Source: Candidatus Heimdallarchaeum aukensis (GTDB lineage Archaea; Asgardarchaeota; Heimdallarchaeia; Heimdallarchaeales; Heimdallarchaeaceae). Taken from it: a DNA stretch of 64,000 nucleotides. Positions within the stretch are counted from its first letter, which is position 1; each line of letters begins with the position of its first letter. Positions 32,993-55,505 of this stretch are shown here, in pieces. The stretch spans positions 3,008,001-3,072,000 of the forward strand of contig CP084166.1 in assembly GCA_021513695.1 (NCBI GenBank), given 5' to 3'. Both the position numbers and the translations under genes were made by a program. The notes below the pieces were generated by a model. It did no database searches. It saw only the letters and a list, made by a program, of their open reading frames with translations, and was not told the origin of the DNA.

Positions 32993-33122
32993 ATAATATA
33001 ATCCTCTTTTTTTTTATTTTCTTTTTTTTGAAGTTTTTAAAGAATAATCAAATTAAGTTAGCACAAATAACAGCAAAGTTAAATATGACTACCTTTGAGA
33101 ATAAAGTAAGATTGGTGAGATT

Positions 33123-34079: not shown

Positions 34080-34209
34080 TCCTTTTTTTATTTTACTGTT
34101 TATTTTTTGTTTTGAGAATAGTAATTTTGTATTTTCATTTAAAAAAATCATTTTTTAAGAACAATAAATCTTTAATATTGAAAAGTTGTAAATGAATGTG
34201 TTGATATAA

Positions 34210-35432: not shown

Positions 35433-35490
35433 TATCAAATTTTTCTTCAATCAATAATCTTTATTTATCACAATATAAACAATAAATGCA

Positions 35491-36186: not shown

Positions 36187-36199
36187 AAAGAGAAAAAAT

Positions 36200-36499: not shown

Positions 36500-36511
36500 T
36501 CTTTTCTCCTC

Positions 36512-37825
36512 CTAAATAGATCTTAAAGCAGCAAAAGCATCTCCCATGAGCTTAAACAGCTTACCTTTCTTTAGGAAGTGCTTAATAGCTGTAGGAACAA
36601 TTCTTTTTCTAGGCTCTCCAGTGTTGTGTAAAAGTTGATACATCAAAGAATTAAGCAGTTCTGGATAAACATTGAAAATTCTCTCTCTCTCCAAGAACTT
36701 TGCAGCTCGTTTAAATCTCTTCAAATCTTGCAAAACAAAACTATCTCGCAATAATTTCAAATAAATCTTTGTTCCTTCTGCAGAATAATCATTTGTTGTT
36801 AAAGCTTCTTTTGCTGCTAACCCTGCTAGTCTTCCAGACTCTAAAGCAAAATTCATACCTTCTATGTACAAACCTGCGTTAAGAACCATACCAGCAGCAT
36901 CACCAGCAATCATCACACCGTTCCCATATAACTTAGGCATGTGTTTGTATCCCCCTTCAGGAATAGCGTGAGCAGAGTATTCAACCATTTTAGCATCTTT
37001 AAGGAGCTTTTGGATGTAGGGGTGTTTCTTAAAATCTTCAAAAGCATCAATCGCTCTGATCTTTTTTTGTATAAGTTTTTTCATGTTTAAGATCAATCCA
37101 AAAGAAAGTGTTTCTTTATTTGTATAGAAGAATCCTCCTCCTGGAATTCCATGAGTATAACCTAGAAACTCGTTACTTATTCCTTCATTTCCATTAAGAT
37201 GAAATCTCTCTTCAATTATTTCTTTCTTTAATTCATATGTTTCTTTCATTCCTACAGCGTAGTGTGAAGGTGAAGGCTTTTTAGCAAGTTTAGCTTTTTC
37301 TGCTAATAAAGTAACAGCTCCTTCAGCAATTATAGTGAGTTTAGCTTTTAATTCATCTTCTCCAGATTCTATTCCTATAATTTGATTATCCTTCCAAATG
37401 AAATCTTCAGCTACAGTGTTGTCGAGAATAAAAGCTCCTGCTTCTTCTGCTTTTTGGGCCAACCATCTGTCAAATTTTGGACGAATAACAGTTACACCAT
37501 TGTAAGGTGGTTCGGCAAAATCTTGTAAATCAATATCAATAGTCATTGCTCGCTTTTCAGACAAAAGAGTAATCTTTTTAGTTGTTAAATATCTCTCAAT
37601 AGCATCTTCTTCCCAATAGTTAGGAACGATTTTATTTAGTACTGGGCCGTAAAGAGCTCCTCCACTTACATTTTTTGCACCAGGATACTGTCCTCTTTCA
37701 ATAATAGCAACCTCTTTTCCTTCCTTTGCTAAAGTTAATGCTGCAGAAGAACCAGCTAGTCCAGCTCCAACTATAATTACATCAAAATCGTATTCTACAG
37801 TCATAAAAAAATGTTTGATTTTCAA
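36512..37825 (-). CDS. fixC: FAD-dependent oxidoreductase FixC (ETF-quinone oxidoreductase-like), copy 1
   Basis: DVIIVGAGLAGSSAAL Rossmann motif; ~437 aa, FixC-like. Confidence 0.85.
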   Translation of the reverse strand: MKIKHFFMTVEYDFDVIIVGAGLAGSSAALTLAKEGKEVAIIERGQYPGAKNVSGGALYGPVLNKIVPNYWEEDAIERYLTTKKITLLSEKRAMTIDIDLQDFAEPPYNGVTVIRPKFDRWLAQKAEEAGAFILDNTVAEDFIWKDNQIIGIESGEDELKAKLTIIAEGAVTLLAEKAKLAKKPSPSHYAVGMKETYELKKEIIEERFHLNGNEGISNEFLGYTHGIPGGGFFYTNKETLSFGLILNMKKLIQKKIRAIDAFEDFKKHPYIQKLLKDAKMVEYSAHAIPEGGYKHMPKLYGNGVMIAGDAAGMVLNAGLYIEGMNFALESGRLAGLAAKEALTTNDYSAEGTKIYLKLLRDSFVLQDLKRFKRAAKFLERERIFNVYPELLNSLMYQLLHNTGEPRKRIVPTAIKHFLKKGKLFKLMGDAFAALRSI

Positions 37826-37977
37826 TATAAAATGTTTATGTGAAAATATAAAAAAGAAAATAGAAAAGAATGAAAAATTATTTTATCTTTTTTAAAGAAT
37901 AATCAAATTAAGTTAGCACAAATAACAGCAAAGTTAAATATGACTACCTTTGAGAATAAAGTAAGATTGGTGAGATT

Positions 37978-38934
37978 ATGTCTGAGGATGAACAAAAAAC
38001 TCAAGTTGAAGAAGAGAAAACTGAGGTAAAAGAAGAAAAAGAAGAAACTCCCTTGGAAATGTACCAAAAAGCTGGAAAAGTAGCTCACGAAATTCTTCAA
38101 ACACTTAAAGATATGGCTAAACCCGGAGTTAAAGCTCTAGATTTAAGTGAAAAAGCAGATGCAATGATAGCTGAAGCAGGAATGAAACCTGCATTTCCTC
38201 TAAATATAGCAATAAACAATCATGCTGCTCATTACACTTGTCCTTGGGAAGATGATTTGATTCTTCAAGAGGGAGATGTAGTAAAAATTGATGTTGGTGT
38301 TCATTATAAAGGTTTTATTGCAGATACAGCTTTAACTGTTGCTTTTGATGATGTCCATAATGATTTAATTAAAGCAAGTAAAGAAGCAACTGAAACAGCC
38401 GTAAAAGTTATACGTGTAGGAAATTATACTGGTAAATTAGGAGATCTAATTGAAAATATTATTGAAGGATACGGCTTCTCAACAGTAAAAGACTTGTCAG
38501 GCCATTTGCTTATGCCTTATCTTGTTCATGGTCCAAAAACTATTCCAAATGTAAGTGGAAGAAAAGGTAACTTGATTTTACAAGATGAAGCTTATGCTAT
38601 TGAAACCTTCGCAACAACAGGTGCAGGAGAATCAAAACCAGATAAAACAAAGTTATATATTGTAAGGTTAGCAGAAGGAAGATTTCCACTAAGAACAAGA
38701 GCTGCAAAAGATGTTAGAAATCTTCTAGATAGAGAATATCATAGAATGCCTGTAGCAACAAGATGGATATATAAGGCCCTTGGTCCTGCTAAGGCAAAAA
38801 TGGGTATTAGAGAATTAATTAATGTGGGAGCTTTATATCAATATCATGTGCTTTCTGATACTTCTGGATCTTTTGTATCACAGCATGAGCATACAGTTTA
38901 CATGACAGAAGAAGGGCCAGTACAAACTACATAA
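37978..38934 (+). CDS. map: Methionine aminopeptidase type 2 (copy 2)
   Basis: Identical to 33123-34079. Confidence 0.9.
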   Translation: MSEDEQKTQVEEEKTEVKEEKEETPLEMYQKAGKVAHEILQTLKDMAKPGVKALDLSEKADAMIAEAGMKPAFPLNIAINNHAAHYTCPWEDDLILQEGDVVKIDVGVHYKGFIADTALTVAFDDVHNDLIKASKEATETAVKVIRVGNYTGKLGDLIENIIEGYGFSTVKDLSGHLLMPYLVHGPKTIPNVSGRKGNLILQDEAYAIETFATTGAGESKPDKTKLYIVRLAEGRFPLRTRAAKDVRNLLDREYHRMPVATRWIYKALGPAKAKMGIRELINVGALYQYHVLSDTSGSFVSQHEHTVYMTEEGPVQTT

Positions 38935-39064
38935 TCCTTTTTTTATTTTACTGTTTATTTTTTGTTTTGAGAATAGTAATTTTGTATTTTCATTTAAAAA
39001 AATCATTTTTTAAGAACAATAAATCTTTAATATTGAAAAGTTGTAAATGAATGTGTTGATATAA

Positions 39065-40288
39065 TTGACTTTACAGACAAGTGAATTCAAATTTATAATG
39101 TATGAACCATGTTTTAATAATTACGATATTGTGTATAACGAATATATGCTGGCTTATGAAGAATTTAAGAAACTAGGAGAAGAGAATGTCAATTTTCGCG
39201 TTCTCTCTTACTTCTATGAAGGAATGCTCTATCTTATTAATGGTGACAAATTCTTTTCTCAGAAGGAATACAAAAAAGCAAATGAAAACTATGAAGAAGC
39301 ACAAAAATTAATTACTCGCTCTAGAGCATCAAGAGGAATTGAAAAAGATACTATCTGGCAAGAAATGGTTAAATGGATAGCATATTGCGAATCTTATACT
39401 AATCTTTCCAAGAGTTATTTAGTCAAAGATTTCTCAGAAAAAATTGAACTATTAAAGAAAAGCAAGGCAGCAATTAAAGATTTTGTAGAAAAAAGGAAAT
39501 ATGATGAAAACATCATCTTGGATATCTATGCAAAAGCTAAAGAAAATTATATCAAGTACATTTATTACATAAATTTAGCTCAAAAATATGAGAAAAACAC
39601 AAGAATGCAGAAAAAAATACTCCTTAAAGCGAGAAGAAAGCTACTTTTAGCTCACTTTATTCTTAATCACTATGAAGAAGAAATAGATGATTTAGACTTT
39701 AAAATTGATGAGCTAACAAAGACACACATAGTTGAAAGAGCAGAAATGTACTGGAACAAGGGAACTTTACTAATTTCTCAAAGTGACTTTATGAGTGCAC
39801 ACAAATATCTTCTTCTAGCTTCTCAGTACTATGAACGAGCAAGCAAAATATGTTCAGAATTTATTGAATTAAGATTATATTTAGCTCTTAGTAAAATAAC
39901 AGAAAGTAGCGGTCTTGAAGCAAAAGCTAATGAACTTTACAGAAGGCAGGACAAGCCCCTAGAAGCCAGTAAACTGTTTGAAGAAGCATATGAAGTTGTA
40001 GACGAATCCCTCGGTTTACTAGCTACAATTCACAATGAAGTGTTAATAAACAATATGACTGCACAAAGATCTTATTATGAAGCTTTAGCACTCGAAGCAA
40101 AAGGTATATCCCTCTTTGACGAAGAGAAATATAAAGAATCTATAGAAATTTTTGAACAATCAATGCAAAAATTAGAAGAAACAGAACGCTTAGTAGTCGA
40201 AGGTAGTTCAGAGCATTTACAAGAGTACATTCGCTTAGCTAAGAATGAGATTGAAGGTTATTTATCTATGGCAAAAACTATGCTTTAG
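39065..40288 (+). CDS. Alpha-helical repeat (TPR-like) protein, 407 aa, intact copy
   Basis: Uninterrupted ORF; all-helical and Lys/Glu-rich. No family recognised. Confidence 0.5.
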   Translation: MTLQTSEFKFIMYEPCFNNYDIVYNEYMLAYEEFKKLGEENVNFRVLSYFYEGMLYLINGDKFFSQKEYKKANENYEEAQKLITRSRASRGIEKDTIWQEMVKWIAYCESYTNLSKSYLVKDFSEKIELLKKSKAAIKDFVEKRKYDENIILDIYAKAKENYIKYIYYINLAQKYEKNTRMQKKILLKARRKLLLAHFILNHYEEEIDDLDFKIDELTKTHIVERAEMYWNKGTLLISQSDFMSAHKYLLLASQYYERASKICSEFIELRLYLALSKITESSGLEAKANELYRRQDKPLEASKLFEEAYEVVDESLGLLATIHNEVLINNMTAQRSYYEALALEAKGISLFDEEKYKESIEIFEQSMQKLEETERLVVEGSSEHLQEYIRLAKNEIEGYLSMAKTML

Positions 40289-40346
40289 TATCAAATTTTT
40301 CTTCAATCAATAATCTTTATTTATCACAATATAAACAATAAATGCA

Positions 40347-41042
40347 ATGCTGTTTGACGATTTTGAAATAAAGGAGTACTTGGAAAATTTTTTCTCAAAG
40401 AATCTATCTGCCAAAGATTATCCTGAACCCGACACTGATCTCGATCATAAATTAGTTTGGAATTACAGTGAAAATGGAGATGCTTTTTCAGTACTTCTTG
40501 ATCCAATAAATGATGCTTACGAATACTTTGGAGTTACTGTAGGTGAGATATTTGCTCACCATCGATTCAAACCAATTGTTTGGCACTTGTATCTTTTTGG
40601 CAATAAAATAAAGAGCTTTGAATGGATTAAATTAAAAGATGGAACTGATTATCTTATTAATGTTGGGACTTACTCTTTTATTTCTTATATCTACGATTTT
40701 AAAAGTGGGAAAAGGTTATACAGAAACCCAATAGAAGAGATAAAATCTCAAATATATTCACTTAACCTCAAGTATGATATATCTGTAAATGATGTAAATG
40801 AATTTGTAGAATATTCTTTTATTGAAGACTACAGGTGGGGAGAAGTTTCGAGAAACGCTATAATAGCTCTTATACTAGATAATTTCAATAAAGATAAAAT
40901 AAATGTTAATGTTCTAGGATTAATTAATCGTGTTTTACACGAATATTCTAATTACGAATCAGACAAACAACTACTAGAAAGAGTGAAAAAAGGAGAATCA
41001 CCTTTTGAACTAGGGACTATCTTTTATAACGATTTTATATAA
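40347..41042 (+). CDS. Hypothetical protein (231 aa), copy 2
   Basis: Identical to copy 1. Confidence 0.45.
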   Translation: MLFDDFEIKEYLENFFSKNLSAKDYPEPDTDLDHKLVWNYSENGDAFSVLLDPINDAYEYFGVTVGEIFAHHRFKPIVWHLYLFGNKIKSFEWIKLKDGTDYLINVGTYSFISYIYDFKSGKRLYRNPIEEIKSQIYSLNLKYDISVNDVNEFVEYSFIEDYRWGEVSRNAIIALILDNFNKDKINVNVLGLINRVLHEYSNYESDKQLLERVKKGESPFELGTIFYNDFI

Positions 41043-41055
41043 AAAGAGAAAAAAT

Positions 41056-41355
41056 TTAACTCATTTTAAATTCTACACCGAATCCTCCATGAGGATAGTG
41101 CCAATCAACACTTCCGTGAGGACAAACAAGCCTACATGTTCCACATTCAACACAAGGTGCATAATCAAACGTTACAGGTACATCTCCATCTTCAACTAGT
41201 TTATAACATTCTGCAGGGCAACCATATACACAGTCATATGTCTTACATTTAGTTTTGCATATCTCCTCGTTTATGGTAATGTGAGCAAAATTTTTGTCTG
41301 TAACATACTTTGTTAATGCAAGTTTTTCTTCAATTTTTATTGGATTTTCTACCAT
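41056..41355 (-). CDS. fixX: Ferredoxin-like protein FixX (copy 2)
   Basis: Identical to copy 1. Adjacent to fixC and fixB. Confidence 0.8.
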   Translation of the reverse strand: MVENPIKIEEKLALTKYVTDKNFAHITINEEICKTKCKTYDCVYGCPAECYKLVEDGDVPVTFDYAPCVECGTCRLVCPHGSVDWHYPHGGFGVEFKMS

Positions 41356-41367
41356 TCTTTTCTCCTC

Positions 41368-42681
41368 CTAAATAGATCTTAAAGCAGCAAAAGCATCTCC
41401 CATGAGCTTAAACAGCTTACCTTTCTTTAGGAAGTGCTTAATAGCTGTAGGAACAATTCTTTTTCTAGGCTCTCCAGTGTTGTGTAAAAGTTGATACATC
41501 AAAGAATTAAGCAGTTCTGGATAAACATTGAAAATTCTCTCTCTCTCCAAGAACTTTGCAGCTCGTTTAAATCTCTTCAAATCTTGCAAAACAAAACTAT
41601 CTCGCAATAATTTCAAATAAATCTTTGTTCCTTCTGCAGAATAATCATTTGTTGTTAAAGCTTCTTTTGCTGCTAACCCTGCTAGTCTTCCAGACTCTAA
41701 AGCAAAATTCATACCTTCTATGTACAAACCTGCGTTAAGAACCATACCAGCAGCATCACCAGCAATCATCACACCGTTCCCATATAACTTAGGCATGTGT
41801 TTGTATCCCCCTTCAGGAATAGCGTGAGCAGAGTATTCAACCATTTTAGCATCTTTAAGGAGCTTTTGGATGTAGGGGTGTTTCTTAAAATCTTCAAAAG
41901 CATCAATCGCTCTGATCTTTTTTTGTATAAGTTTTTTCATGTTTAAGATCAATCCAAAAGAAAGTGTTTCTTTATTTGTATAGAAGAATCCTCCTCCTGG
42001 AATTCCATGAGTATAACCTAGAAACTCGTTACTTATTCCTTCATTTCCATTAAGATGAAATCTCTCTTCAATTATTTCTTTCTTTAATTCATATGTTTCT
42101 TTCATTCCTACAGCGTAGTGTGAAGGTGAAGGCTTTTTAGCAAGTTTAGCTTTTTCTGCTAATAAAGTAACAGCTCCTTCAGCAATTATAGTGAGTTTAG
42201 CTTTTAATTCATCTTCTCCAGATTCTATTCCTATAATTTGATTATCCTTCCAAATGAAATCTTCAGCTACAGTGTTGTCGAGAATAAAAGCTCCTGCTTC
42301 TTCTGCTTTTTGGGCCAACCATCTGTCAAATTTTGGACGAATAACAGTTACACCATTGTAAGGTGGTTCGGCAAAATCTTGTAAATCAATATCAATAGTC
42401 ATTGCTCGCTTTTCAGACAAAAGAGTAATCTTTTTAGTTGTTAAATATCTCTCAATAGCATCTTCTTCCCAATAGTTAGGAACGATTTTATTTAGTACTG
42501 GGCCGTAAAGAGCTCCTCCACTTACATTTTTTGCACCAGGATACTGTCCTCTTTCAATAATAGCAACCTCTTTTCCTTCCTTTGCTAAAGTTAATGCTGC
42601 AGAAGAACCAGCTAGTCCAGCTCCAACTATAATTACATCAAAATCGTATTCTACAGTCATAAAAAAATGTTTGATTTTCAA
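41368..42681 (-). CDS. fixC: FAD-dependent oxidoreductase FixC (copy 2)
   Basis: Identical to copy 1. Directly downstream of fixB. Confidence 0.85.
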   Translation of the reverse strand: MKIKHFFMTVEYDFDVIIVGAGLAGSSAALTLAKEGKEVAIIERGQYPGAKNVSGGALYGPVLNKIVPNYWEEDAIERYLTTKKITLLSEKRAMTIDIDLQDFAEPPYNGVTVIRPKFDRWLAQKAEEAGAFILDNTVAEDFIWKDNQIIGIESGEDELKAKLTIIAEGAVTLLAEKAKLAKKPSPSHYAVGMKETYELKKEIIEERFHLNGNEGISNEFLGYTHGIPGGGFFYTNKETLSFGLILNMKKLIQKKIRAIDAFEDFKKHPYIQKLLKDAKMVEYSAHAIPEGGYKHMPKLYGNGVMIAGDAAGMVLNAGLYIEGMNFALESGRLAGLAAKEALTTNDYSAEGTKIYLKLLRDSFVLQDLKRFKRAAKFLERERIFNVYPELLNSLMYQLLHNTGEPRKRIVPTAIKHFLKKGKLFKLMGDAFAALRSI

Positions 42682-42733
42682 TATAAAATGTTTATGTGAA
42701 AATATAAAAAAGAAAATAGAAAAGAATGAAAAA

Positions 42734-43708
42734 TTATTTTATCTTTTCTTTTAAAATAGGAAGAATTTGATGAAGATCTCCAACTATTCCATAATCACAA
42801 TATTTGAATATAGAAGCTCTTTCGTCAGTGTTTATTGCTATCAAGGTCTTGGCTTTAACTCCACAGATATGTTGAGGTGCACCACTAATTCCTGCGGCAA
42901 TATACAAATCAGGGGAAACTGACTGACCAGTTTGGCCTATTTCATAAGTTTCTTCTATCCAATGTAGATCTGTGCAGGCTCTTGTTGCACCCATTTCTCC
43001 TCCAAGCAAGTCAGCTAGTTCTTTAATAATAGCGAATTTGTCTTTTCCACCTACACCCCTTCCTCCAGCAACAATTATCTTTGCATCTTTAAGATTAACT
43101 GTCTTCTTCGCTTTAAGAATCTCTACACTTTTAACAATTCTATCTTTTTCATCGAATGAAACAGTTAATTTTTCTATTTCTGGTTCTTGTCCTTCTGGAT
43201 TCTCATCTATAAAGAAAGCTCCTGCACGAGTTGTGATGAATATTTTTTCTCCTTTAGATTTCATTTTTACCATAGCTTGGTCGTCTCTAACTGGAGTAAT
43301 AGCTATAAGATCATCACCCTCTAAAATCAAGTCAGTTACTCTTTCAAGACAAGTAGTGTTATAATGAACAGCTAATCTGGGAATGAGGTCTTCTACATTA
43401 ACTAGTCCTCCACCAATAACTACTTTAGGGTCAGCAGTTTTGATAATCTCTAACATAGCTTTTACATAAGCTCGAGAAAGGTAAGTGCTCAATTCAGGAG
43501 CTTCTACTACAAAGACTTTTTTAGCTCCGTGCTTACCTAAAGTGGAAATCCATTCATCTTTAGCTTGTTCACAGAGGAGAGCAGCAGAAACATCTCCTAA
43601 ACTAGTAAAGTTTTTGACTTTATTTAGAACTCCTAAAACGTTTTCTTCTATTTCTCCATCTCTGATTAAAGCAAAAACAAGTATTCCAGTCATTTTATGC
43701 ACCCCCAA
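42734..43708 (-). CDS. fixB: Electron transfer flavoprotein alpha subunit (FixB/EtfA)
   Basis: ETF alpha FAD-binding C-terminal domain motifs (IIVAGGRGV, YIAAGISGAPQH). Confidence 0.85.
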   Translation of the reverse strand: MGVHKMTGILVFALIRDGEIEENVLGVLNKVKNFTSLGDVSAALLCEQAKDEWISTLGKHGAKKVFVVEAPELSTYLSRAYVKAMLEIIKTADPKVVIGGGLVNVEDLIPRLAVHYNTTCLERVTDLILEGDDLIAITPVRDDQAMVKMKSKGEKIFITTRAGAFFIDENPEGQEPEIEKLTVSFDEKDRIVKSVEILKAKKTVNLKDAKIIVAGGRGVGGKDKFAIIKELADLLGGEMGATRACTDLHWIEETYEIGQTGQSVSPDLYIAAGISGAPQHICGVKAKTLIAINTDERASIFKYCDYGIVGDLHQILPILKEKIK

Positions 43709-46529: not shown

Positions 46530-46880
46530 TTGTTGCTTTACCTATGATTTACTTTTTTACATAAAGTTTTTCGCACTCTGTCTTGCAAGAGAAAAAACTA
46601 AAGGAAGTTTAATCTCTTGAACTCAACCAAGCCATACAATGCCGTGAAGGGGTTGAGACAGACATCATACACGAATCGTGGGAATCATAAAGAAGAAAAG
46701 AGTTGTAAGTTCTTTTCTTCACTCCACGAGAGACAAAAAAGAAAGAATTACCCACTAAAAGAGAGAAGTAATTACTTTCCTTTTTGTCTACTGGGACTGC
46801 AACCAATGGCTGAGCCCTAGACAAACAGTGAAATGAGTGAGACTGTATTTCTGACCAGTGAGGTAATCGGTGATAGTATT
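46530..46880 (-). ncRNA. Putative omega-RNA (reRNA) of the TnpB element, overlapping the tnpB 3' end and extending downstream
   Basis: A conspicuously GC-rich, stop-codon-poor segment sits immediately 3' of tnpB on the minus strand. It explains the symmetric spurious ORFs on both strands at 46609-46824. Confidence 0.4.
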
Positions 46881-48245
46881 TCCTCGAGGACGGAAAAGTT
46901 CCCCAAGGAACTTACGCGCGATATTCATTGCTCCAGTGAGGTCAGAGTGGAAAGTGTAATTGCAAGAGGGACAATGGACTAAACCTCTAACGGGACGGAT
47001 AACTTTCCTTCCGCAACGAGTACAGTGAGAGGATGTTCCTTTTTCCTCTATCGTTAATATTCGGTGAGGTTCAAAACCTCTTAATATCAATGCTCGATGA
47101 AGAAGAGCAAGAACAAGAGAAAAGTTCCACTGATGAAGTTTTCTACGAAACTTACGAGTAATTTTTCTCTTTCCTTTCTCCTCTCGAATGTGTTTAGGAT
47201 AACCTACAACGACGAAAAGGTCATACCTTTGTGCATAAGTTTCTATCGTCTGCACGACATTGTTTATAAATTGGTGAATATAGACGCGTTTAACGTTTTT
47301 ATATCTTCTTCGGAGAAGGCCGAGAAAACGGTAAATTTGGTGTTTTTTACCAGATTGGTCGTTTAAAGCCGCTTTCCTCTGAAGACGGGAAAGTTTGAGT
47401 TTATATCGATGATTAACTCTATTCCACTGTTTGGTATACCAGAATTTTATCTCTTTGTTTGTTAATTTCTTTTTAGGGGTTAGAAGCACTCCTGCAGCAG
47501 GAATGTTTATACCTAGATCTATTCCCAGCACAGCTGGGGGAAGAGAAGAAGAATTCTCTTTTTCAGGAGAATAAAAAGAAGGAGGAGGAAGAACTTTTAG
47601 TTGGAAATACACCCACCACTCACGTGTAGAACGTTTATATCTTAGTTCTAAACTTTTCACTCTCCCTTTCTTTAACTCTTTCTGGTGGAAAGTGCTCATC
47701 TCTAAAGGTAACCATAGTTTCTGATGATAAGGTGTGTTTCTTCTCCACGTATCTAACGAGTCTCTTATCCCCACCCACCAACGAGTAAGTGTATTATTCT
47801 TCTCTTTTGGCAGATGCACGAGAACAAACCTCTTTGCATTAATTAGTTGTCTTCTTGCTCTCTTTATTGGAAGACGAGTAGGACTGGGTCTATACCCTTG
47901 CTCGTATAGTTGCACAGCTATATCTCTACATTCTTGGAATTCATTGTGAGAACAATAAGGGAACATTTTCTTGAAATCGTGAAGAACAGTCTCTCTCCTC
48001 TCTTCTACTCTCTTTAATCTTGATGTCGTTAGCGTCAGTTCATCTAGTTTTCCTCTGTGAACTCTTATTTTCCCATTTTTAGTTTTAGTACATATTTTTC
48101 TTCTGTTGTGATGTATAATTCTCACATACTTTTCTATTATCCTTGTGTCTCTCCCCGTTATTTTCCTTAACTTTTCCTTTTTTCTCGTCGTCAATACCTC
48201 ATTCTTTATCCTCACTTTCAAGGTTTTGACGACGTCCTCCACCAT
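46788..48245 (-). CDS. tnpB: TnpB-like RNA-guided endonuclease (IS200/IS605 OrfB family)
   Basis: RuvC-I GIDLGINIP, zinc finger CTRCG...CPSC, RuvC-III DLTGAMNIARK at the C-terminus. GC content is clearly higher than in flanking genes. No adjacent tnpA. Confidence 0.85.
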   Translation of the reverse strand: MVEDVVKTLKVRIKNEVLTTRKKEKLRKITGRDTRIIEKYVRIIHHNRRKICTKTKNGKIRVHRGKLDELTLTTSRLKRVEERRETVLHDFKKMFPYCSHNEFQECRDIAVQLYEQGYRPSPTRLPIKRARRQLINAKRFVLVHLPKEKNNTLTRWWVGIRDSLDTWRRNTPYHQKLWLPLEMSTFHQKELKKGRVKSLELRYKRSTREWWVYFQLKVLPPPSFYSPEKENSSSLPPAVLGIDLGINIPAAGVLLTPKKKLTNKEIKFWYTKQWNRVNHRYKLKLSRLQRKAALNDQSGKKHQIYRFLGLLRRRYKNVKRVYIHQFINNVVQTIETYAQRYDLFVVVGYPKHIREEKGKRKITRKFRRKLHQWNFSLVLALLHRALILRGFEPHRILTIEEKGTSSHCTRCGRKVIRPVRGLVHCPSCNYTFHSDLTGAMNIARKFLGELFRPRGNTITDYLTGQKYSLTHFTVCLGLSHWLQSQ

Positions 48246-48375
48246 TTTTTTCCTTCCTTCTTTTCTTTTTCTGTTTATTTTTTCTATTTTTTTTCTTCTT
48301 CTCTTTTTATTTTACTTTTTTTTCCTATAAAAACCCCTCTCCTTCCTCTCCTCTCTTCTCTTTCTTCCTCACTTT
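48246..48375 (+). repeat. ~130-nt polypyrimidine (C/T) tract on the plus strand, immediately upstream of the tnpB start
   Basis: The run tttttttccttccttcttttctttttctg...cctctccttcctctcctctcttctctttcttcctc is a near-pure pyrimidine strand. Confidence 0.7.
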
Positions 48376-48565
48376 GCTGTCAACAACTGTAAATTACGTA
48401 AAAAATAGACGCATGTGAATCGTCAATACTTAGTTTATATATTATTTAAATATTATTCCTCTTAAACTGCCATTATCCAGTAAAATATTTATATATTTTT
48501 GAGAAAAACATATTTTCTTAAAATTATATTTTTTGAATAAGGAAAAAGATAGTCCAAGACCAAAT

Positions 48566-49072
48566 TTAAGTAGATTCGTTTTTATCTTTTTCAAAATTAC
48601 TTATTATTTTTTCCAAAACTTGTTCTATCTCTGTTTTGGATTTAAGAGAAAGGAAATAATATTCAATATTGAATTTGTTTGCTATACTTGCCACTTCTTC
48701 TTCACTTATTTCATGATATGCTTCTAAGTCTTTTTTAGACCCAATAAAAATGATGTTAGGTATGAATTTCAAAGCTTCTGCTACTTCTTTTATCCACTTA
48801 TGAACATCTATAAACGAGCTCCTTCTAGTGAGATCAAAGACAACAAAAATCACATTACTGCCAACATAATATGACTTCCTTATTTCAGTAAATCTTTGTT
48901 GAGCTGGTAGGTCCCAAAGAGTTAAATTGTACTTTTCTCCTTTAATTTCGATAGAATAAGTAGCAATATTTTGGCCATATTCTTCTTTTCTTACTTCTGT
49001 GGTTAGCGTTCTTAGTAACTCTGTTTTACCTACTCCTGCCTCACCGACGATACAAATCTTTAGATTATGCAT
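48566..49072 (-). CDS. Ras/Rab-like small GTPase
   Basis: G1 GEAGVGKT, G3 WDLPAQ (DxxGQ-like), G4 GSKKD (NKxD-like), G5 LSLKS. 168 aa, a typical small GTPase size. Confidence 0.8.
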   Translation of the reverse strand: MHNLKICIVGEAGVGKTELLRTLTTEVRKEEYGQNIATYSIEIKGEKYNLTLWDLPAQQRFTEIRKSYYVGSNVIFVVFDLTRRSSFIDVHKWIKEVAEALKFIPNIIFIGSKKDLEAYHEISEEEVASIANKFNIEYYFLSLKSKTEIEQVLEKIISNFEKDKNEST

Positions 49073-49153: not shown

Positions 49154-49792
49154 TTACTTTCTTATTCCTTCAAATAGGATTGTAAGTATTTCTTTTATGT
49201 TTTCTTCAATTTCATTACTCTCAATTTTAAATCCTTCTTCTAAATAACCTGTCGCTCCTAAAGCTGGTCTAGAAGAAGATATGAAAAGAAAAGCTAGAGT
49301 TTTAGCTCTTACATCTTTTCTTATTTTTCCTTTTTCTTGACATTTTCTAAAAAACTCTGTAAGTTTCTCTAGGGCAATTGTAGATTGGGCAAGTTCTTCG
49401 AATATAGGTCTTAATTCAGGATTGTGAAATTCTTTATACAATATAAGTAAAATTTTCCTAAATTTCAAGGCAAAATTCCAAAATTCAAGACTAACTCTAT
49501 ATAGAGTTTCATAGGGATTTTCTGATAATTCATCAATTTTTTCTCCAAATTGTTTCCACATCTTGTTGGATAGTTCTATTCCTCTTTTAATTATGGTTTC
49601 AAAAATCTCTGTTTTATTTCTAAAATATTTGTAAACTAAAGCTTCTGAAACTCCTTCTTCTTCTGCTATATCTTTCATAGTTGTGTAGGCTACTCCTTTT
49701 TTAGAAAATAGTTCTATAGCTGTACGTAGAATTCTCTCTTTTCTTTCTTCTTTCTTAAGCCATTTATGCTCTTCTTTTTTGTTTTCACGCAT
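49154..49792 (-). CDS. TetR/AcrR-family transcriptional regulator
   Basis: N-terminal HTH (RILRTAIELFSKKGVAYTTMKDIAEEEGVSEALVYKYF). Divergent from the ABC transporter genes. Confidence 0.85.
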   Translation of the reverse strand: MRENKKEEHKWLKKEERKERILRTAIELFSKKGVAYTTMKDIAEEEGVSEALVYKYFRNKTEIFETIIKRGIELSNKMWKQFGEKIDELSENPYETLYRVSLEFWNFALKFRKILLILYKEFHNPELRPIFEELAQSTIALEKLTEFFRKCQEKGKIRKDVRAKTLAFLFISSSRPALGATGYLEEGFKIESNEIEENIKEILTILFEGIRK

Positions 49793-49894: not shown

Positions 49895-52800
49895 ATGATG
49901 GATTACATTAATAGCTTACTAACAAAAACATTTAGGCGCAGAATAGGAAAAAATGTAGGAACAATGATAGGTATTGCTCTTTCTGTGAGTTTAATGCTAG
50001 GAGTACAAATAACAATTACAAGTTTTTCAACAAAAGCTTTGGGCTTTTTTACTGAAGCTATTGGTGAAAATGATATCATTATTCAAAATTTTGGCTTTCC
50101 AATTGAAAATTACCAAGAGATAATAGAAAAAATAGATAATTCTTCGATTCCGTATGCCGCTATTAATTGGCGTGTTTCTCAAGATGTTGCTGTTTATAAC
50201 CTTGAGAAAGGATATCTGGAAAAAGGGGTAAGCTTTATAGGAGTCGAGCTGGATGAAGATCAAACTTTTGGTAGATTTTATCATCCTGATAGTGAAACAG
50301 AATATAGTAAAGAAGAATTAGAACAGATTTTTGCAGATAACACCAGTGTTCTAGTTGGAAAGTATTTATTTGATGATATGGAATTAAAAGTTAATCAAAC
50401 TATTAAGATTAGAATTGGAGAGTTACAAGGATTACAATTTAATTATAAAACATATGACCTAAAAATTGCTGGATTTATTGCAGACAAAGAAAAAGGAAAA
50501 GAGAGTGGGGGAAGGGTTTTATGGACCTCTATAGACAATATTCGTTCAATTATTGGTGTAAGTAACAATTCAGTTACAGAGATAAACATCTCTTTGAGTC
50601 CCAATCATGATGAACAACCCGTATCAAACGATTATGCTTATGAAGTTGAAGAACAGTTAAAAGAAATACTAGATGTAGAAAACACAGGATTACTTGTTAT
50701 TGCTTTTAGAGCTTTAGTATTAGACACAGCAGATAAAATAATTAAAGATGTGCTTATAGCTTTTAACTTGTTTGGTGCTTTAATTATCTTTTCTGGAGTA
50801 CTATTACTAGTAAATATCCAGTTAATTCAAGTAGAGGATAGAATGCAACAATTAGGAGTCTTAAGAGCTATAGGTTCAAAGAGAAAAGAAATTATTCGAA
50901 TGTTTCTCATGGAGTCAGCTATTTTAGGTTTTATAGGTTCACTCCTTGGTTTAGGCGGAGGATATGCGATGTCTATATTTCTAGTCTGGAGAATAGGAAT
51001 AACTTTCTTTAACACTACCGTCTTTCTCACTCCAATTGTAACAGGTTCTGCTGTGTTATACTCGTTTATTGTAGGTTTCACATTAGCTATCGGAGCAGGA
51101 TTGTTACCAGCAATAAGGGCAAGTAGAGTTGATCCTATAGAAGTGATTAGAGGAATTAAAAAAGTGAAAGAAAGGAGAATGGGAACTGGTATTTTAGTTC
51201 TCGGAATCTCTCTGATTGTTATCGGAATAACCACTTTTGCTACTCAACTAGCTGTTGGCGATAGTTTCTTTTCTAATCAAGGGTGGAATACTGCAAATGA
51301 GCAATGGACTTTTATGGGTGCTGTAGGAGGAATATTATTAGGTTTAAGTGTTCTAACAGCTTATCTTGTTTCGAGGAAAGTAATGGGGAATGCCATAGGT
51401 TTTTCTCTTATCACAATTGCCATCTCAATGTTACTATTCGCTCTCCCTCAACTAAAAGATGTGACTGACAATAATAAAATACTCATAACTTGTGTAGTGA
51501 TATTAGCTTTAGGAACAATTATCTTGGTTGGAGTAAATCTCAAATTTGTTACAAACTTGGTAAGAACGATTTTATATAAGACTAAAATAAAGAAAGGAGT
51601 ATCACTAATTTCAGCTAAATACATGACCTCAAAAACAATGAGAAGTACATTGACTTTTGGAATATTTACATTAGTGCTTACAATGAACATTTTTGCTTCA
51701 ATATACCAAGCAACTTTTTCGTATAACACCTTAGAATCAGTAGAATTTCTAAGTGGAGGAGCTTCAATATATGTTGAGTTAGATACTCCTATACAGAATG
51801 ATTCGTTAGTAGATGTAGAACGAGATTTACCTAAAATAGATCCCTCAATAGAATATGTAAAAGGAATAAACACGACAATTTCGCTCTTACAAGCAGATCC
51901 TTCTGCAAAATTGTCTATTCCCTCTGAAATATTTGCAGCTCAGATACAATTGATATATAATGATACATTCAAAAATGGTTCAGAATATGTCTTTGACTTT
52001 ATGATCGAACAAAGTATAGGAAAGTTAAACGAAGAATATAAACCTGCAGCTTCAGAAGAATATCAACGTAGATACAGTCACAAGATTTGGGACCTATTCT
52101 ACAATAGAACGAGATTTAATAAAGATGGAGAAAAAGATCCTAATGGATTACCCACCGTTATTTCTACAAATCCTATTCTTAAACCTGGAGATGTTTTTAA
52201 TATAACTGGTCTTTTCAAACCCCCAATTGAAGTTATTGTATTGGCAAATGTAAGGCAGTATCCTTTTTCTATAAGTTCAGGTTTTCCGATTCTGTTTGTT
52301 ACTCCTGACCTTTTACCATTCTTGAGTTATAATTTCGCTATATTTCCCAAATACACTAATTTTCTAGTGAAGACAAGTGAAGACTTTAGAAATGGTAGAA
52401 ATTCGGAGATAGCAAATAAAATTGAAACATTCTTTAATGGAAATGAATCCATATTAATAAAAAATAACGATTTTGTTGCTGCTTCAGCATATAATGTCTG
52501 GGAAGAAATGCTGGAACAAGTTGATTTTCAAGTTAGAACATTTGATTTTATGCAGATATTTGTAAGCTTTGGTTTAGTTGTCGGCGCGATAGGGATGATA
52601 ATTATTGCCATTCGTAACGTTTCGGAACGTAAAAGAGAAATAGGAATGATGAGAGCAATAGGTTATAAGAAATCACAAATAATTCTTTCAATTTCTCTAG
52701 AACTCTTTATTTTAGCAGGATTAGGGTTGTTTATGGGTTTAATCAACAGTATTGTTCTAGGAGCTACTTTTGCGCGGTTATATGATTGGTATCTCATAAT

Positions 52801-52924
52801 CCCAATAGGAAGAGTGTTGCTTTATACAGGTGTGATGATAGGGATTGCTTTTCTCGCTTCAATTATTCCAGGTATAAGATCTAGCAGGATTACTCCTGCT
52901 GAAGCTTTAAGGTATGTGGGGTGA
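49895..52924 (+). CDS. Large MacB/FtsX-type ABC transporter permease (1009 aa, two FtsX modules, each with an extracytoplasmic domain)
   Basis: Two repeats of the 4-TM FtsX domain with large intervening soluble domains; MacB/FtsX architecture. Confidence 0.8.
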   Translation: MMDYINSLLTKTFRRRIGKNVGTMIGIALSVSLMLGVQITITSFSTKALGFFTEAIGENDIIIQNFGFPIENYQEIIEKIDNSSIPYAAINWRVSQDVAVYNLEKGYLEKGVSFIGVELDEDQTFGRFYHPDSETEYSKEELEQIFADNTSVLVGKYLFDDMELKVNQTIKIRIGELQGLQFNYKTYDLKIAGFIADKEKGKESGGRVLWTSIDNIRSIIGVSNNSVTEINISLSPNHDEQPVSNDYAYEVEEQLKEILDVENTGLLVIAFRALVLDTADKIIKDVLIAFNLFGALIIFSGVLLLVNIQLIQVEDRMQQLGVLRAIGSKRKEIIRMFLMESAILGFIGSLLGLGGGYAMSIFLVWRIGITFFNTTVFLTPIVTGSAVLYSFIVGFTLAIGAGLLPAIRASRVDPIEVIRGIKKVKERRMGTGILVLGISLIVIGITTFATQLAVGDSFFSNQGWNTANEQWTFMGAVGGILLGLSVLTAYLVSRKVMGNAIGFSLITIAISMLLFALPQLKDVTDNNKILITCVVILALGTIILVGVNLKFVTNLVRTILYKTKIKKGVSLISAKYMTSKTMRSTLTFGIFTLVLTMNIFASIYQATFSYNTLESVEFLSGGASIYVELDTPIQNDSLVDVERDLPKIDPSIEYVKGINTTISLLQADPSAKLSIPSEIFAAQIQLIYNDTFKNGSEYVFDFMIEQSIGKLNEEYKPAASEEYQRRYSHKIWDLFYNRTRFNKDGEKDPNGLPTVISTNPILKPGDVFNITGLFKPPIEVIVLANVRQYPFSISSGFPILFVTPDLLPFLSYNFAIFPKYTNFLVKTSEDFRNGRNSEIANKIETFFNGNESILIKNNDFVAASAYNVWEEMLEQVDFQVRTFDFMQIFVSFGLVVGAIGMIIIAIRNVSERKREIGMMRAIGYKKSQIILSISLELFILAGLGLFMGLINSIVLGATFARLYDWYLIIPIGRVLLYTGVMIGIAFLASIIPGIRSSRITPAEALRYVG

Positions 52925-52929
52925 TATGA

Positions 52930-53631
52930 ATGAGTGATGAAATAATATTAAAAACTGAAAATCTGGGCAAAATTTATGCTGGAGGGACACCAATGGAAGT
53001 TCATGCTCTTCGAGGAATCAATCTAGAGATAAAGCGAGGAGAAATGGTAGCTATTATGGGTCCTTCAGGATGTGGAAAAACTACTCTGTTAAACCTTATT
53101 GGAGGAATAGATAAACCCACATACGGAAAAATTATAATTGAAGGAAAAGATATTTCGACACTTACAGATGAAGAAATGACAGAATTTAGGCTATTTAATA
53201 TAGGTTATATCTTTCAGCTGTTTAATCTTTTCGATTTCTTAACAGCTTTAGAAAATACAGTTTTACCTTTATTGTTAACTAATACTAGTAGGTTTGAAGC
53301 TGAAGAAGAAGCAAAAATGATGTTAAGACAAATGGGTTTAGGGGATAAACTTAATCATCTTCCCTCTGAACTTAGTGGAGGAGAGCAACAGAGAGTTGCA
53401 GTATCAAGAGCACTACTCATGAATCCTGCAATTATTCTAGGAGATGAACCTACTGGAGATCTCGATGAAATGACTTCAAAAGACATCATGGACCTCTTTA
53501 GAAGCATAAATGAAAATTTCAAACAGACTTTCATAGTGGTTACACATAGTAAATACATTGCTGAATTCTGTGATAGAACTATTCGTATAATAGACGGTCA
53601 GATCGTAGATGACGGGTATGGTGGAAAATAA
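52930..53631 (+). CDS. ABC transporter ATP-binding protein (MacB/LolD-like)
   Basis: Walker A GPSGCGKTT, signature LSGGEQQR, Walker B ILGDEPTGDLD. Confidence 0.9.
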   Translation: MSDEIILKTENLGKIYAGGTPMEVHALRGINLEIKRGEMVAIMGPSGCGKTTLLNLIGGIDKPTYGKIIIEGKDISTLTDEEMTEFRLFNIGYIFQLFNLFDFLTALENTVLPLLLTNTSRFEAEEEAKMMLRQMGLGDKLNHLPSELSGGEQQRVAVSRALLMNPAIILGDEPTGDLDEMTSKDIMDLFRSINENFKQTFIVVTHSKYIAEFCDRTIRIIDGQIVDDGYGGK

Positions 53632-55505
53632 TGAGTAAAGCAATAAACAAGCAAACTAATTCGATCTATGATGAAGAAGCCATATTCTCAGCAGGATTAT
53701 TAATAAATAAACTCGATAGAGACTCACTTAAGGATTTAACAAGATCTTTGAGAAGATTCATAGTTAGGAAATGTAAAGCAAAAGCATTTGAAATTAAAGA
53801 AGTTAATACATTCTTATTTGTTAATGCTTCTTTTCCTCCAAACTTAATTAGTGATACTGAAAGCCGTATTAAAATAGAAAATGGTGTCAAGAATATAATT
53901 ATTGATTATGCTTTAAAAGAAAATAACAAATTTTCCAAGCAAATTGCAAAAAATATTGAAATAAAAGACATTACACAAATTTTACTAGATCTGATAAATA
54001 ATTCTAATTCACCAAAAAAGAAACAACTGATTGAAACAGTAATAAGAAGAGGAAAAGAGATTCAACAACGTTCTATTGTTCATGTAACAAATGTCATTCT
54101 TAATTCATTCATTTTGTCATGGGATAAAGAAGATTATAGAATTATTTTCCCGGATGAACGTGTAGAAAGAAAAGAAAAAAGTGCAGATGCTTTTGGCACA
54201 TTTCAAAGTTTATTAGAAAATCTTTCAGTAATACAATATGCTCATATTTCAATGGAAAATCTCAGCTGGATAATTGGTTCATATGAATACGCTTTAGACA
54301 ATTTGTATGAGTTAATATCTAATCTTTCTAAAGAAATTAAGACTTCTCCTACAATCTCTAAATCTTTTTGGAGGGCTTTAAGAGTAATTTTTGGGTTGTT
54401 ATCAACAACTCAGCAAATCCTATCTGATTTGTTGAAGCAACTAAACAAATTTGTTGAGATAAAAGAAGAATTTAAGAAACAATGTAAACAGTTGGATTTT
54501 CACTCTCTTACTGACGTTTTGAAAAGATACAATATTGAAAATGAAACCGCTGATTTTATTGTTTGGATTAGTCAGTTACTTCAAAATACTAAGATGGCTT
54601 ATAGTCTACTTTTAGACTTGATTAATTGCTGTAAGACTTCAGATAGGCTGGAAATGGAAAATATAGAACTCATTATCTCAAATTTCGGATGGGTTCTTTC
54701 AGATATTCAAACAATGAAATTCTTTGCAGAAAAATTTAGAGACATAACTTTCTTTCAATCTTTTCCACCAGAAATAGTTGTAGAAACAAAGAAAGAAATG
54801 CGTTTGCCTGAAGATGTAGTAATTAAAGGAGTTAGTTTGTTCAAGACATATCGATTATTTGGTTCTACTGTCTATGCTTTAAGGGGAATAGATATAGAAG
54901 TGTGTAAAGGAGAAATGGTTGCTATTTTAGGTCCTTCTGGTAGCGGTAAAACCACTTTGTTAAATCTTTTAGCTGGGCTTGATTCACCTGATAATGGAGC
55001 AATTTTCTTTAAGGGCAAAAATATTCATTTATTGCCTGATTCTGTTTTCTCCATGTACAGAAGGAAAGATATGGGTTTTATCTTTCAGTACTATAATCTT
55101 ATTCCACAGTTAACAGTATTGGAAAATGTAATGTTGCCTGGATTGATGGTAGGAAGACCAGTGAAAGAGGTTAGACAAAAGGCCATTGAATTACTTGAAA
55201 TAGTAGGTATTGAGCGTTTTAAAAACCAGTTTCCAATCAAATTATCAGGGGGACAAATGCAAAGAGTAACTATAGCAAGATCAATGATAAATGATCCTGT
55301 GCTTCTTTTTGCAGATGAGCCTACAGGAGATTTAGATAACGCTACAGGAAAAATAGTAGTTGATCTTATTCATCGTTTTTCTAAAGAAAAAGGGACAGCT
55401 GTGATCTTTGTTACTCATGATGAAGAAATGGCAAGAAAATGTGATAGAATAATAAGAATTAGAGATGGAAGAATTCATTCGGAAGAAATAATTAAAAAGA
55501 ATTAA
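53631..55505 (+). CDS. ABC ATPase with a ~390-aa N-terminal alpha-helical domain of unknown function
   Basis: The C-terminal ~230 aa carry GPSGSGKTT, LSGGQMQR and LFADEPTGDLD. The N-terminal half matches no family. The start overlaps the upstream stop (taATGa). Confidence 0.8.
   Translation: MSKAINKQTNSIYDEEAIFSAGLLINKLDRDSLKDLTRSLRRFIVRKCKAKAFEIKEVNTFLFVNASFPPNLISDTESRIKIENGVKNIIIDYALKENNKFSKQIAKNIEIKDITQILLDLINNSNSPKKKQLIETVIRRGKEIQQRSIVHVTNVILNSFILSWDKEDYRIIFPDERVERKEKSADAFGTFQSLLENLSVIQYAHISMENLSWIIGSYEYALDNLYELISNLSKEIKTSPTISKSFWRALRVIFGLLSTTQQILSDLLKQLNKFVEIKEEFKKQCKQLDFHSLTDVLKRYNIENETADFIVWISQLLQNTKMAYSLLLDLINCCKTSDRLEMENIELIISNFGWVLSDIQTMKFFAEKFRDITFFQSFPPEIVVETKKEMRLPEDVVIKGVSLFKTYRLFGSTVYALRGIDIEVCKGEMVAILGPSGSGKTTLLNLLAGLDSPDNGAIFFKGKNIHLLPDSVFSMYRRKDMGFIFQYYNLIPQLTVLENVMLPGLMVGRPVKEVRQKAIELLEIVGIERFKNQFPIKLSGGQMQRVTIARSMINDPVLLFADEPTGDLDNATGKIVVDLIHRFSKEKGTAVIFVTHDEEMARKCDRIIRIRDGRIHSEEIIKKN

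Follow-up and report, generated by a model that had tools for sequence, protein, structure and literature searches.

A Rab-like small GTPase lineage of Heimdallarchaeota with altered switch regions

The GTPase gene and its family

The window analyzed here is a 64-kb stretch (64,000 nucleotides) of contig CP084166.1 of Candidatus Heimdallarchaeum aukensis. An open reading frame (ORF) at 48566..49072 on the minus strand has an ATG start, 168 codons, and a stop, as checked in the letters, and its translation begins MHNLKICIVGEAGVGKTELL. It encodes a Rab-like small GTPase that lacks the conserved Thr of switch I (the G2 motif) and the Gly of the DxxG (G3) motif in switch II. The original prediction, made from the sequence, had described the product as a Ras/Rab-like GTPase with non-canonical G3 and G4 motifs, and verification against the DNA finds the ORF and every quoted motif in place. 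The gene and its motifs are as follows.

48566..49072, minus strand: coding sequence of the Rab-like small GTPase, 168 amino acids (aa); assigned from the ORF, Pfam Ras, the AlphaFold2 (AF2) model, Foldseek, and NCBI identity
49022..49045, minus strand: G1/P-loop GEAGVGKT, residues 10-17; canonical GxxxxGK[ST]
48965..48985, minus strand: switch I segment EEYGQNI, residues 30-36; four residues shorter, no G2 Thr/Ser
48899..48916, minus strand: G3/switch II WDLPAQ, residues 53-58; Asp54 and Gln58 kept, Pro56 and Ala57 variant
48728..48742, minus strand: G4 GSKKD, residues 111-115; [S/T/A]KxD form of NKxD
48641..48649, minus strand: G5 SLK, residues 142-144; a form of SAK

NCBI already has an identical entry, 'MAG: GTP-binding protein [Candidatus Heimdallarchaeum aukensis]' (MAG, metagenome-assembled genome), which bears out the Asgard context proposed earlier, and names the orthologs 'Rab family GTPase'. 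A Logan contig is 100% identical across the region, and the chromosome of H. endolithica (CP084167.1; locus L014, 9001-9507) carries a 95% identical ortholog. The G+C content of the window is 31.8%, a composition at which long ORFs rarely arise by chance. Only one plus-strand ORF of at least 50 aa lies mostly within the gene (64 aa; no gene evidence was sought or found for it), and a 50-aa ORF on the minus strand overlaps the gene at the 3' end only. The GTPase ORF is a real gene, far beyond chance. No paralog is found by tblastn elsewhere in the 64-kb window. The original prediction regarded small GTPases as a hallmark of Asgard archaea that is rare in other prokaryotes. The Asgard host stands, and within such a genome a small GTPase is expected, not rare, as 74 to 133 per genome have been reported (PMC10933270, PMC4915359): 133 small-GTPase-domain proteins in Lokiarchaeum (PMC4915359) and 74 small GTPases in MKD1 (PMC10933270), while eight Asgard MAGs together have 291 (PMC8813620). 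The gene is therefore no surprise in this host.

The protein is a single G domain with neither a fused domain nor a C-terminal Cys. Its C-terminus reads ...EKDKNEST, and a tail Cys is likewise absent in every member of the orthologous clade described below. Pfam Ras (PF00071) is the top profile, with E=7.4e-33 and 113.9 bits against a cutoff of 21.6, and residues 5-160 cover profile positions 1-160 of 162. NCBIfam TIGR00231 (small_GTP) also matches (E=1.7e-20, 73.4 bits, cutoff 42.5), and weaker Pfam matches are Roc, Arf (33.9 bits), MMR_HSR1 (26 bits, E=1e-5), and RsgA_GTPase. Among 837 PDB sequence matches at E<=1e-3, the best 60 are all Rabs (Rab43, Rab35, Rab12, Rab1, Rab14, Rab11, and others, with E about 2e-21 to 3e-18). 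The AF2 model, predicted from a six-sequence alignment of the clade and free of ligand, has a predicted local distance difference test score (pLDDT) of 90.2 and a predicted template modeling score (pTM) of 0.87, and the switch regions reach a pLDDT of about 92. The order of its elements, beta1-alpha1-beta2-beta3-alpha2-beta4-alpha3-beta5-alpha4-beta6-alpha5, is that of the canonical 6-strand/5-helix Ras fold. In a Foldseek search against PDB, Rab1, Rab8, and Rab11 come first at template modeling (TM) scores of 0.85-0.89 with a probability of 1.00, followed by Rap2A and MRAS. These two, both of the Ras superfamily, are the only exceptions among the best 50 matches, the other 48 being Rabs. Identity to Rab1A is ~28%. 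By profile and fold, the protein is a Ras-superfamily homolog nearest to Rabs and archaeal Rab-like proteins, in agreement with the identity first proposed, and the structure modeling recommended there yields a confident Ras fold nearest to Rab1/Rab8.

Membership in a common bacterial-type family (MglA, Era, or another TRAFAC family) instead of a Ras/Rab-like one, an alternative that the original prediction itself had raised, is scarcely credible. The weak secondary matches to MMR_HSR1 and RsgA_GTPase point in that direction, but MMR_HSR1 reaches only 26 bits, far below the 114 bits of PF00071, and the PDB matches by both sequence and fold are Rabs. MglA-type GTPases resemble the protein in being small prokaryotic members of the Ras superfamily without a lipid anchor. 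However, the G3 Asp is changed to Thr in MglA (PMC3000849), whereas Asp54 is invariant in the clade. MglA also partners with the roadblock protein MglB, whereas no Roadblock/LC7 or longin Pfam domain is found among the called genes within about 6-10 kb at any GTPase locus. PADLOC returns generic P-loop noise only for the protein (E 8e-5 and 5e-4), and it is therefore not a recognized defence component.

The nearest relatives outside the clade are Asgard Rab-like GTPases (30-38% identity, E 1e-27 to 1e-17), exemplified by Thor-Rab (PDB 7EZB) and the proteins of Lokiarchaeum (PMC10933270, PMC4915359). These are alike in having a single G domain of ~170-185 aa, a Rab-like fold, a short C-terminus without a prenylatable Cys, and an Asgard host, and one Asgard group (P0159 type) has the motif FDLTRRSSF in common with the clade GTPase. 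Contrarily, the other Asgard Rab-like GTPases keep both the Thr of switch I 'TIG' and the Gly of DxxGQ, which the clade GTPase lacks. Rab-level GTPase activity has been measured for Thor-Rab (PMC10933270), whereas the clade GTPase is known from sequence. The archaeal Rab-like consensus conserves all RabF1 and RabF2 positions (PMC4915359), whereas in the clade GTPase the RabF1 string IGVDF is reduced to -GQNI.

Eukaryotic Rabs (Rab1, Rab8, Rab11, Rab35, Rab43) give the best structure matches by sequence (E about 2e-21) as well as by fold, and RabF3-F5 are partly identical (RF..I, YY.G, VV.D.T). However, eukaryotic Rabs have a C-terminal CC/CXC and a hypervariable tail, neither of which is present in the GTPase, and the latter has no G2 Thr, has Ala for the G3 Gly, and shows little conservation of RabF1 and RabF2. 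Compared with the RabF1-RabF5 strings, which we take to be IGVDF, KLQIW, RFrsiT, YYRGA, and LVYDIT, the protein matches Rab1A at ~13/27 positions (-GQNI 1/5, NLTLW 2/5, RFTEIR 3/6, YYVGS 3/5, and VVFDLT 4/6). The RabF scheme, which PMC4915359 and PMC10933270 cite, goes back to Pereira-Leal & Seabra 2000. The disruption of RabF1 by a deletion and the absence of both a Cys prenylation motif and the tail set the protein apart from eukaryotic Rabs. In the sense of Surkont & Pereira-Leal 2016 (PMC4915359), it agrees with archaeal Rab-like proteins in being nearer to Rab than to Ras, Rho, Ran, or Arf and in having no C-terminal Cys, but departs from them in RabF1 (1/5) and RabF2 (2/5). Judging from these motifs, the GTPase would be a divergent archaeal Rab-like member at best.

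The orthologous clade and its altered G motifs

A word-indexed search finds only five other cluster representatives, at 49-67% identity to the GTPase. A profile search adds two more sequences at 43-44% identity (E about 1e-57), after which the E values drop steeply to at least 1e-27, and the matches beyond are generic Asgard proteins annotated as 'Rab family GTPase', from Loki-, Thor-, Hermod-, Odin-, and Heimdallarchaeota. An exhaustive HMMER scan of 1.84 billion representatives returns 35,391 relatives, with the same close set only, besides multi-domain tandem GTPases. Signature peptides of the clade occur in only six loci among 185,579 species-representative genomes. Three of these genomes are named Heimdallarchaeum/Heimdallarchaeota, and the other two lineages, labelled 'uncultured archaeon', share the syntenic block. 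A neighbor-joining (NJ) analysis of 199 sequences recovers the clade as monophyletic with 100% bootstrap support. The candidates for the nearest outgroup in NJ are ordinary Lokiarchaeota or metagenomic Rab-like proteins, so that the phylogenetic placement suggested by the original prediction is achieved for the clade itself but not for its parent group. This accords with the conclusion of PMC4915359 that archaeal Rab-like proteins cannot be placed by phylogeny alone. The clade is a narrow, vertically inherited, Heimdallarchaeota-only orthologous lineage.

The length of switch I differs clearly between the clade and its relatives. In the phmmer alignment, the clade has 'EEY----GQNIASK' where the nearest Asgard relatives have 'ENYimtiGSNFSTK'. 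An alignment by MAFFT L-INS-i, with H-Ras and Rab1A as reference sequences, places the 4-residue gap opposite D33-P34-T35-I36 of H-Ras and I-S-T-I of Rab1A, and among the aligned sequences the gap is common to the eight of the clade and its sister and confined to them. The residue facing the Thr varies with the alignment: in a second MAFFT alignment, the gap moves upstream and Glu31 lies opposite the Thr, and in the pairwise alignment with Rab43, Asn35 lies opposite the G2 Thr. Under every alignment, the G2 position has neither Thr nor Ser, and no Ser/Thr is conserved in switch I of the clade. The deletion with the loss of Thr is unique to the clade among about 120 Asgard homologs. EEYGQNI is invariant in the members with DLPAQ at G3 (the DLPAQ clade), the sister orthologs having EFGHNI, and Tyr32 is aligned with Ras Tyr32 by MAFFT L-INS-i. 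The switch I deletion, which the original prediction had overlooked, is a larger anomaly than the G3 variant.

At G3, DLPAQ stands against the usual DTAGQ, where Pro56 replaces Ala59 and Ala57 replaces the invariant Gly (Ras Gly60). WDLPAQQRF is invariant in 6/6 cluster representatives (49-100% identity). EEYGQNI and WDLPAQQRF are both exact in 12/13 further cluster members, and the remaining member has WDLPAQKRF with DLPAQ unchanged. Gly occupies the fourth DxxG position in 197/236 aligned G domains of the best matches. The non-canonical G3 is truly variant and conserved in the clade. The change had been described as Pro for Ala/Gly. Pro indeed replaces Ala59, but Gly60 is replaced by Ala, not by Pro. 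The emphasis on Pro as the key change of switch II is not upheld either, for the sister orthologs have DLPGQ, with the same Pro and a normal Gly. Since the Pro is common to these sisters, the diagnostic change at G3 is that of Gly60 to Ala.

In the P-loop, G10, G13, G15, K16, and T17 are invariant in the clade. Lys113 of G4 is also invariant. In the ~120 best Asgard homologs, G4 is most often TKLD (85), followed by NKLD, and G4, which had been singled out as unusual, thus has in its T/S for N the majority state of the nearest Asgard homologs. Eukaryotic Rho-family proteins also have TKxD at this motif. In one branch (the P0005 cluster, that is, the lineage of loci L013/L017 and L019/L018), G4 is TKKN, with Asp changed to Asn in all 13 cluster members. 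At G5, Ser142 is invariant in the DLPAQ clade and the orthologs have SA[LNI], and S[A/L]x is within the normal range. As to the five G motifs of the Ras superfamily, the protein has G1, G4, and G5 but no G2 Thr, and its G3 reads DxxA. The sister orthologs at the same locus (with the M42 peptidase neighbor) have the switch I deletion while G3 is still DLPGQ. The order of losses read from these sequences is the switch I deletion, then the G3 Gly, and then the G4 Asp in one branch.

One eukaryotic sequence should be mentioned here. In P0040 (XP_064600784.1, Liolophura sinensis), residues 7-156 form a degenerate first G domain with WDLPA and without the switch I Thr. This chiton protein, a tandem 'ras and EF-hand domain-containing protein-like' protein, matches at only 28 bits and was rejected as kin in favor of convergence, the same two positions having decayed in parallel in a eukaryotic pseudo-domain.

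The metagenomic strain variants L001 and L003 differ from the window gene by 18 synonymous and 0 nonsynonymous changes. Against the H. endolithica ortholog, the synonymous rate (dS) is 0.68 and the nonsynonymous rate (dN) 0.020, giving a dN/dS of 0.03. The seven substitutions are all located outside the G motifs, and the eighth difference is an earlier stop, by three codons. Purifying selection on the gene is strong, and the altered motifs are therefore maintained features. These values bear directly on the idea that the gene is a paralog in decay, on its way to a pseudogene, with its motifs lost under relaxed constraint. The stepwise loss of canonical residues (G2, G3, then G4 in one branch) and the highly paralogous nature of the family would fit such decay, but the strain differences, the low dN/dS, the intact ORF in all lineages, the invariance of the variant motifs themselves, and the confident predicted fold make it highly improbable.

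Nucleotide binding and switching

In Ras-like switches, Thr35 and Gly60 contact the gamma-phosphate through their main-chain NH groups, and Thr35 also ligates Mg2+ with its side chain. Loss of these contacts leads to the open 'state 1', and the Y32F, T35S, and G60A mutants of H-Ras are mostly in state 1 with drastically impaired intrinsic GTPase activity (PMC4867591). PseudoGTPases are G domains without one or more G motifs, and are grouped into class i (no nucleotide binding), class ii (binding without catalysis, as in Rnd), and class iii (divergent motifs with residual catalysis, as in RGK) (PMC5593906). The protein falls under this formal definition, with the fold present, the G2 Thr absent, and the G3 Gly replaced, while assignment to a class would call for biochemistry.

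The residues kept in the pocket are those of the P-loop GxxxxGKT, Asp54, Gln58, Lys113, Asp115, and Ser142. Since these parts of the phosphate- and base-binding pocket are retained, guanine nucleotide with Mg2+ is most likely still bound through the P-loop, Asp54, [S/T/A]KxD, and S[A/L]x. Both universal 'loaded-spring' contacts with the gamma-phosphate are altered, given no equivalent of Thr35 and Ala in place of Gly60. By analogy with H-Ras T35S and G60A, gamma-phosphate sensing would be weak or unconventional and intrinsic hydrolysis slow. The protein would then behave as an atypical GTP/GDP switch like a class ii/iii pseudoGTPase (Rnd- or RGK-like), not as a classical timer. The invariance of both switch segments together with the retention of Gln58 suggests that the switch surface (EEYGQNI, WDLPAQQRF) is a conserved partner-binding interface and that any hydrolysis would depend on a partner. 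We therefore lean, with modest confidence, towards a Rab-like protein that binds nucleotide but is weakened both in sensing the gamma-phosphate and in hydrolysis, similar to pseudoGTPases of class ii/iii.

Rnd (class ii) and RGK (class iii) proteins have the Ras fold, an intact P-loop and base motifs, and degraded switches (PMC5593906), but the likeness is one of expected mode only. They belong to unrelated eukaryotic Rho/Ras branches, Rnd being degraded near switch II and RGK in several G motifs, and unlike them, the GTPase keeps the catalytic Gln. H-Ras T35S and G60A are altered at the same two positions, from which an open switch I, impaired GTPase activity, and weak effector binding would be expected (PMC4867591). 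However, these mutants carry single engineered changes in a canonical protein, whereas the loss in the clade is natural, combined (the deletion plus Gly to Ala), ancient, and selected, and compensation is therefore possible.

Such compensation is the basis of a serious rival, to which we give a real but distinctly smaller chance: an ordinary, fully cycling Rab-like switch in which Glu30/Glu31, Tyr32, Asn35, and the NH group of Ala57 compensate for the altered contacts, with a dedicated guanine nucleotide exchange factor and GTPase-activating protein. The invariance of the P-loop, Asp54, Gln58, Lys113, and Ser142 is consistent with a cycling enzyme, as are the alignment of Tyr32 with its Ras counterpart, the strong purifying selection, the confidently modeled switch regions (pLDDT about 92), and the Rab-level GTPase activity of the Asgard Thor-Rab (PMC10933270). 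However, a conserved Ser/Thr is found nowhere in switch I, the Gly of DxxG is near-universal (197/236 aligned domains), and the conservative changes T35S and G60A alone cripple switching and hydrolysis in H-Ras (PMC4867591). The additional loss of the G4 Asp in the orthologous branch with TKKN fits poorly with strict selection for GTP cycling.

Several points weigh against the weakened sensing and hydrolysis that we favor. The contacts of Thr35 and Gly60 are partly made by main-chain NH groups, one of which Ala57 may still supply, and at Mg2+ Glu31 or Asn35 might take over from the side chain of Thr. An active enzyme would be expected to keep Gln58, Asp54, and the P-loop, all of which are invariant in the clade. 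The AF2 model, being ligand-free, is silent on the geometry of switch I around the nucleotide. The analogy is drawn with H-Ras point mutants, not with a co-adapted natural protein. Furthermore, the DLPAQ subclade has an NJ bootstrap of 57%.

The Rab-like kind of protein, the category of pseudoGTPases, and the GTP-binding annotation of this gene are already known. What is new is a small, selected Heimdallarchaeota lineage without both universal switch residues. Asgard small GTPases have been studied as forerunners of eukaryotic membrane-trafficking switches, with attention almost all on the canonical ones. The clade is a natural experiment, in which the switch I Thr is deleted, the DxxG Gly is replaced, and the G4 Asp is lost in one branch, all under purifying selection. 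If nucleotide is bound without cycling, Rab-like diversification into non-switching adaptors (cf. Rnd, RGK, CENP-M) was already under way in archaea, and the clade would provide a compact system for how far the loaded-spring mechanism can be dismantled. If cycling is normal, the clade would represent an alternative mode of gamma-phosphate sensing. A bolder proposal, which we regard as rather doubtful, is that the protein is the first recognized archaeal nucleotide-binding pseudoGTPase, a constitutive, non-cycling adaptor that acts via its invariant switch surface, possibly on the TetR/MacB-type module beside it. A search of the accessible literature library for the combination of 'Asgard' and 'pseudoGTPase' found no paper. 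If the adaptor reading is true, pseudo-switch derivatives of Rab-like proteins arose before eukaryogenesis. In phylogenetic terms, PMC8813620 describes Heimdallarchaeaceae as the clade nearest to eukaryotes. The practical weight is modest in either case, as the protein is one among dozens of paralogs and already annotated.

Neighboring genes and other features of the window

The genes around the GTPase are arranged in the order ETF-beta, M42 peptidase (plus strand), GNAT (minus), TnpB-like (minus), GTPase (minus), TetR (minus), and an FtsX/ABC/ABC operon (plus). The main neighbors are listed below.

49154..49792, minus strand: TetR-family regulator; Pfam TetR_N E=2.8e-15; 81 bp upstream of the GTPase gene
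49895..55505, plus strand: MacB-type ABC exporter operon, divergent from TetR; Pfam FtsX and ABC_tran, with MacB_PCD in orthologs
53631-55505, plus strand: 624-aa ABC protein; C-terminal third an ABC ATPase, N-terminal ~400 aa without Pfam match
46788..48245, minus strand: TnpB/Cas12f-like ORF, 485 aa; Pfam Cas12f1-like TNB zinc ribbon E=4.8e-9, PADLOC Cas12f E=2.5e-13

The operon encodes an FtsX permease of 1009 aa, an ABC ATPase of 233 aa, and the 624-aa protein with a C-terminal ABC ATPase. The last gene has a one-base overlap, at its start, with the ABC ATPase gene before it, and it is kept with the FtsX operon in all lineages. PADLOC mad3 models match in the ATPase part of its product (E=2e-32). 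Inspection by eye of the 81-bp spacer between TetR and the GTPase shows a T8 run, roughly at -24 to -31 relative to the ATG, which is ambiguous as an archaeal promoter or terminator signal at 32% GC.

The orthologous loci share the order ABC operon, TetR, GTPase, (GNAT), M42, with TetR in most of them. The ABC operon adjoins the GTPase gene in all loci with upstream context (the window, L005, L008, L010/L016, L011, L013/L017, L014, and L019). In L013/L017 (Heimdallarchaeota 18H4_34) and L019/L018 (8H_bin2), TetR is missing and the GTPase gene lies 141 bp head-to-head with the FtsX gene, and in this lineage about 7 kb of unrelated genes lie between the GTPase and M42/ETF. In L008 (GCA_054001415.1, 6001-6504), of the three genes TetR, GTPase, and GNAT, only that of the GTPase has an inverted orientation; a 465-aa ORF without Pfam match is located between M42 and GNAT in the same locus. 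In the sister-clade contig L012, M42 lies beside the GTPase gene. The synteny is a matter of vertical inheritance of the whole block within one family-level group. As ABC, TetR, GTPase, GNAT, M42, and ETF are all syntenic in the same genomes, the linkage is no stronger than shared ancestry predicts.

The arrangement raises the question of whether the GTPase is an accessory or regulator of a TetR-controlled MacB-type exporter, coupling, for example, a cellular signal to the expression or activity of the pump. Besides the constant adjacency of the ABC operon, TetR and the GTPase gene are co-directional with gaps of about 40-185 bp in most lineages, and the head-to-head arrangement with FtsX is seen where TetR is lost. 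However, the whole block is syntenic, and given the inversion in L008, co-transcription is not a conserved feature. The protein shows no evident fused or interacting domain, and no precedent for coupling of a Rab-like protein to MacB was found, nor do we know of any. A functional tie to the exporter is unlikely. A specific GTPase-ABC link was considered from L013, in which the ABC operon is kept although TetR, GNAT, and M42 seemed to be gone, but was downgraded, since M42 and ETF are found within about 7 kb in the longer flank L017 and in L018.

The TnpB-like ORF lies 320 bp downstream of the GTPase gene on the same strand. It is so named because of the Pfam TNB domain and the PADLOC Cas12f models; a PDB sequence search with it yields zinc-finger noise only. 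In L003, whose flanks are 95-99% identical to the window, homology breaks at about 46546 and 48394. At this spot, another filler of ~1.03 kb is present in both L003 and H. endolithica (L014), and a 213-aa SBP_bac_5 fragment is called within it in L003. In L005, only 90 bp separate the GTPase and GNAT genes. The metagenome contigs L001 and L002 end at the edge of the element, as expected of a multicopy repeat, and no second copy is present in the 64-kb window. The element (~46547-48393) is a strain-specific insertion or replacement.

The original prediction had stressed that the GTPase gene is next to this element. The proximity is real, but it carries no significance, as the element is absent in the near-identical strain, in H. 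endolithica, and in all other orthologous loci. The proximity is therefore incidental. That the GTPase is cargo of the TnpB/Cas12f-like element, or functionally tied to it, as the short distance on the same strand might suggest, has hardly any probability left: the breaks and different filler in L003, the lack of the element in H. endolithica, the 90-bp gap in L005, the contig ends typical of a multicopy repeat, and the presence of the GTPase gene at the same locus in all lineages without the element are all opposed to it. Comparison with L003, L005, L014, and the other loci thus ruled out the linkage.

An Rfam scan of the whole 64 kb at the gathering threshold gives no match, and no tRNA, rRNA, or known riboswitch is detected. 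Elsewhere in the window, a tandem duplication is found at 33034-37891 / 37889-42747 (4,859 bp, 99.98% identity, one indel), which could be either a very recent duplication or an assembly artefact of this genome, scaffolded with Nanopore reads and multiple displacement amplification (PMC8813620). The duplicated segment contains genes for an M24 peptidase, a TPR protein, a 231-aa protein without Pfam match, and a FixC/ETF-QO-like flavoprotein. The two copies of the TPR protein are 354 and 407 aa long because of the indel.

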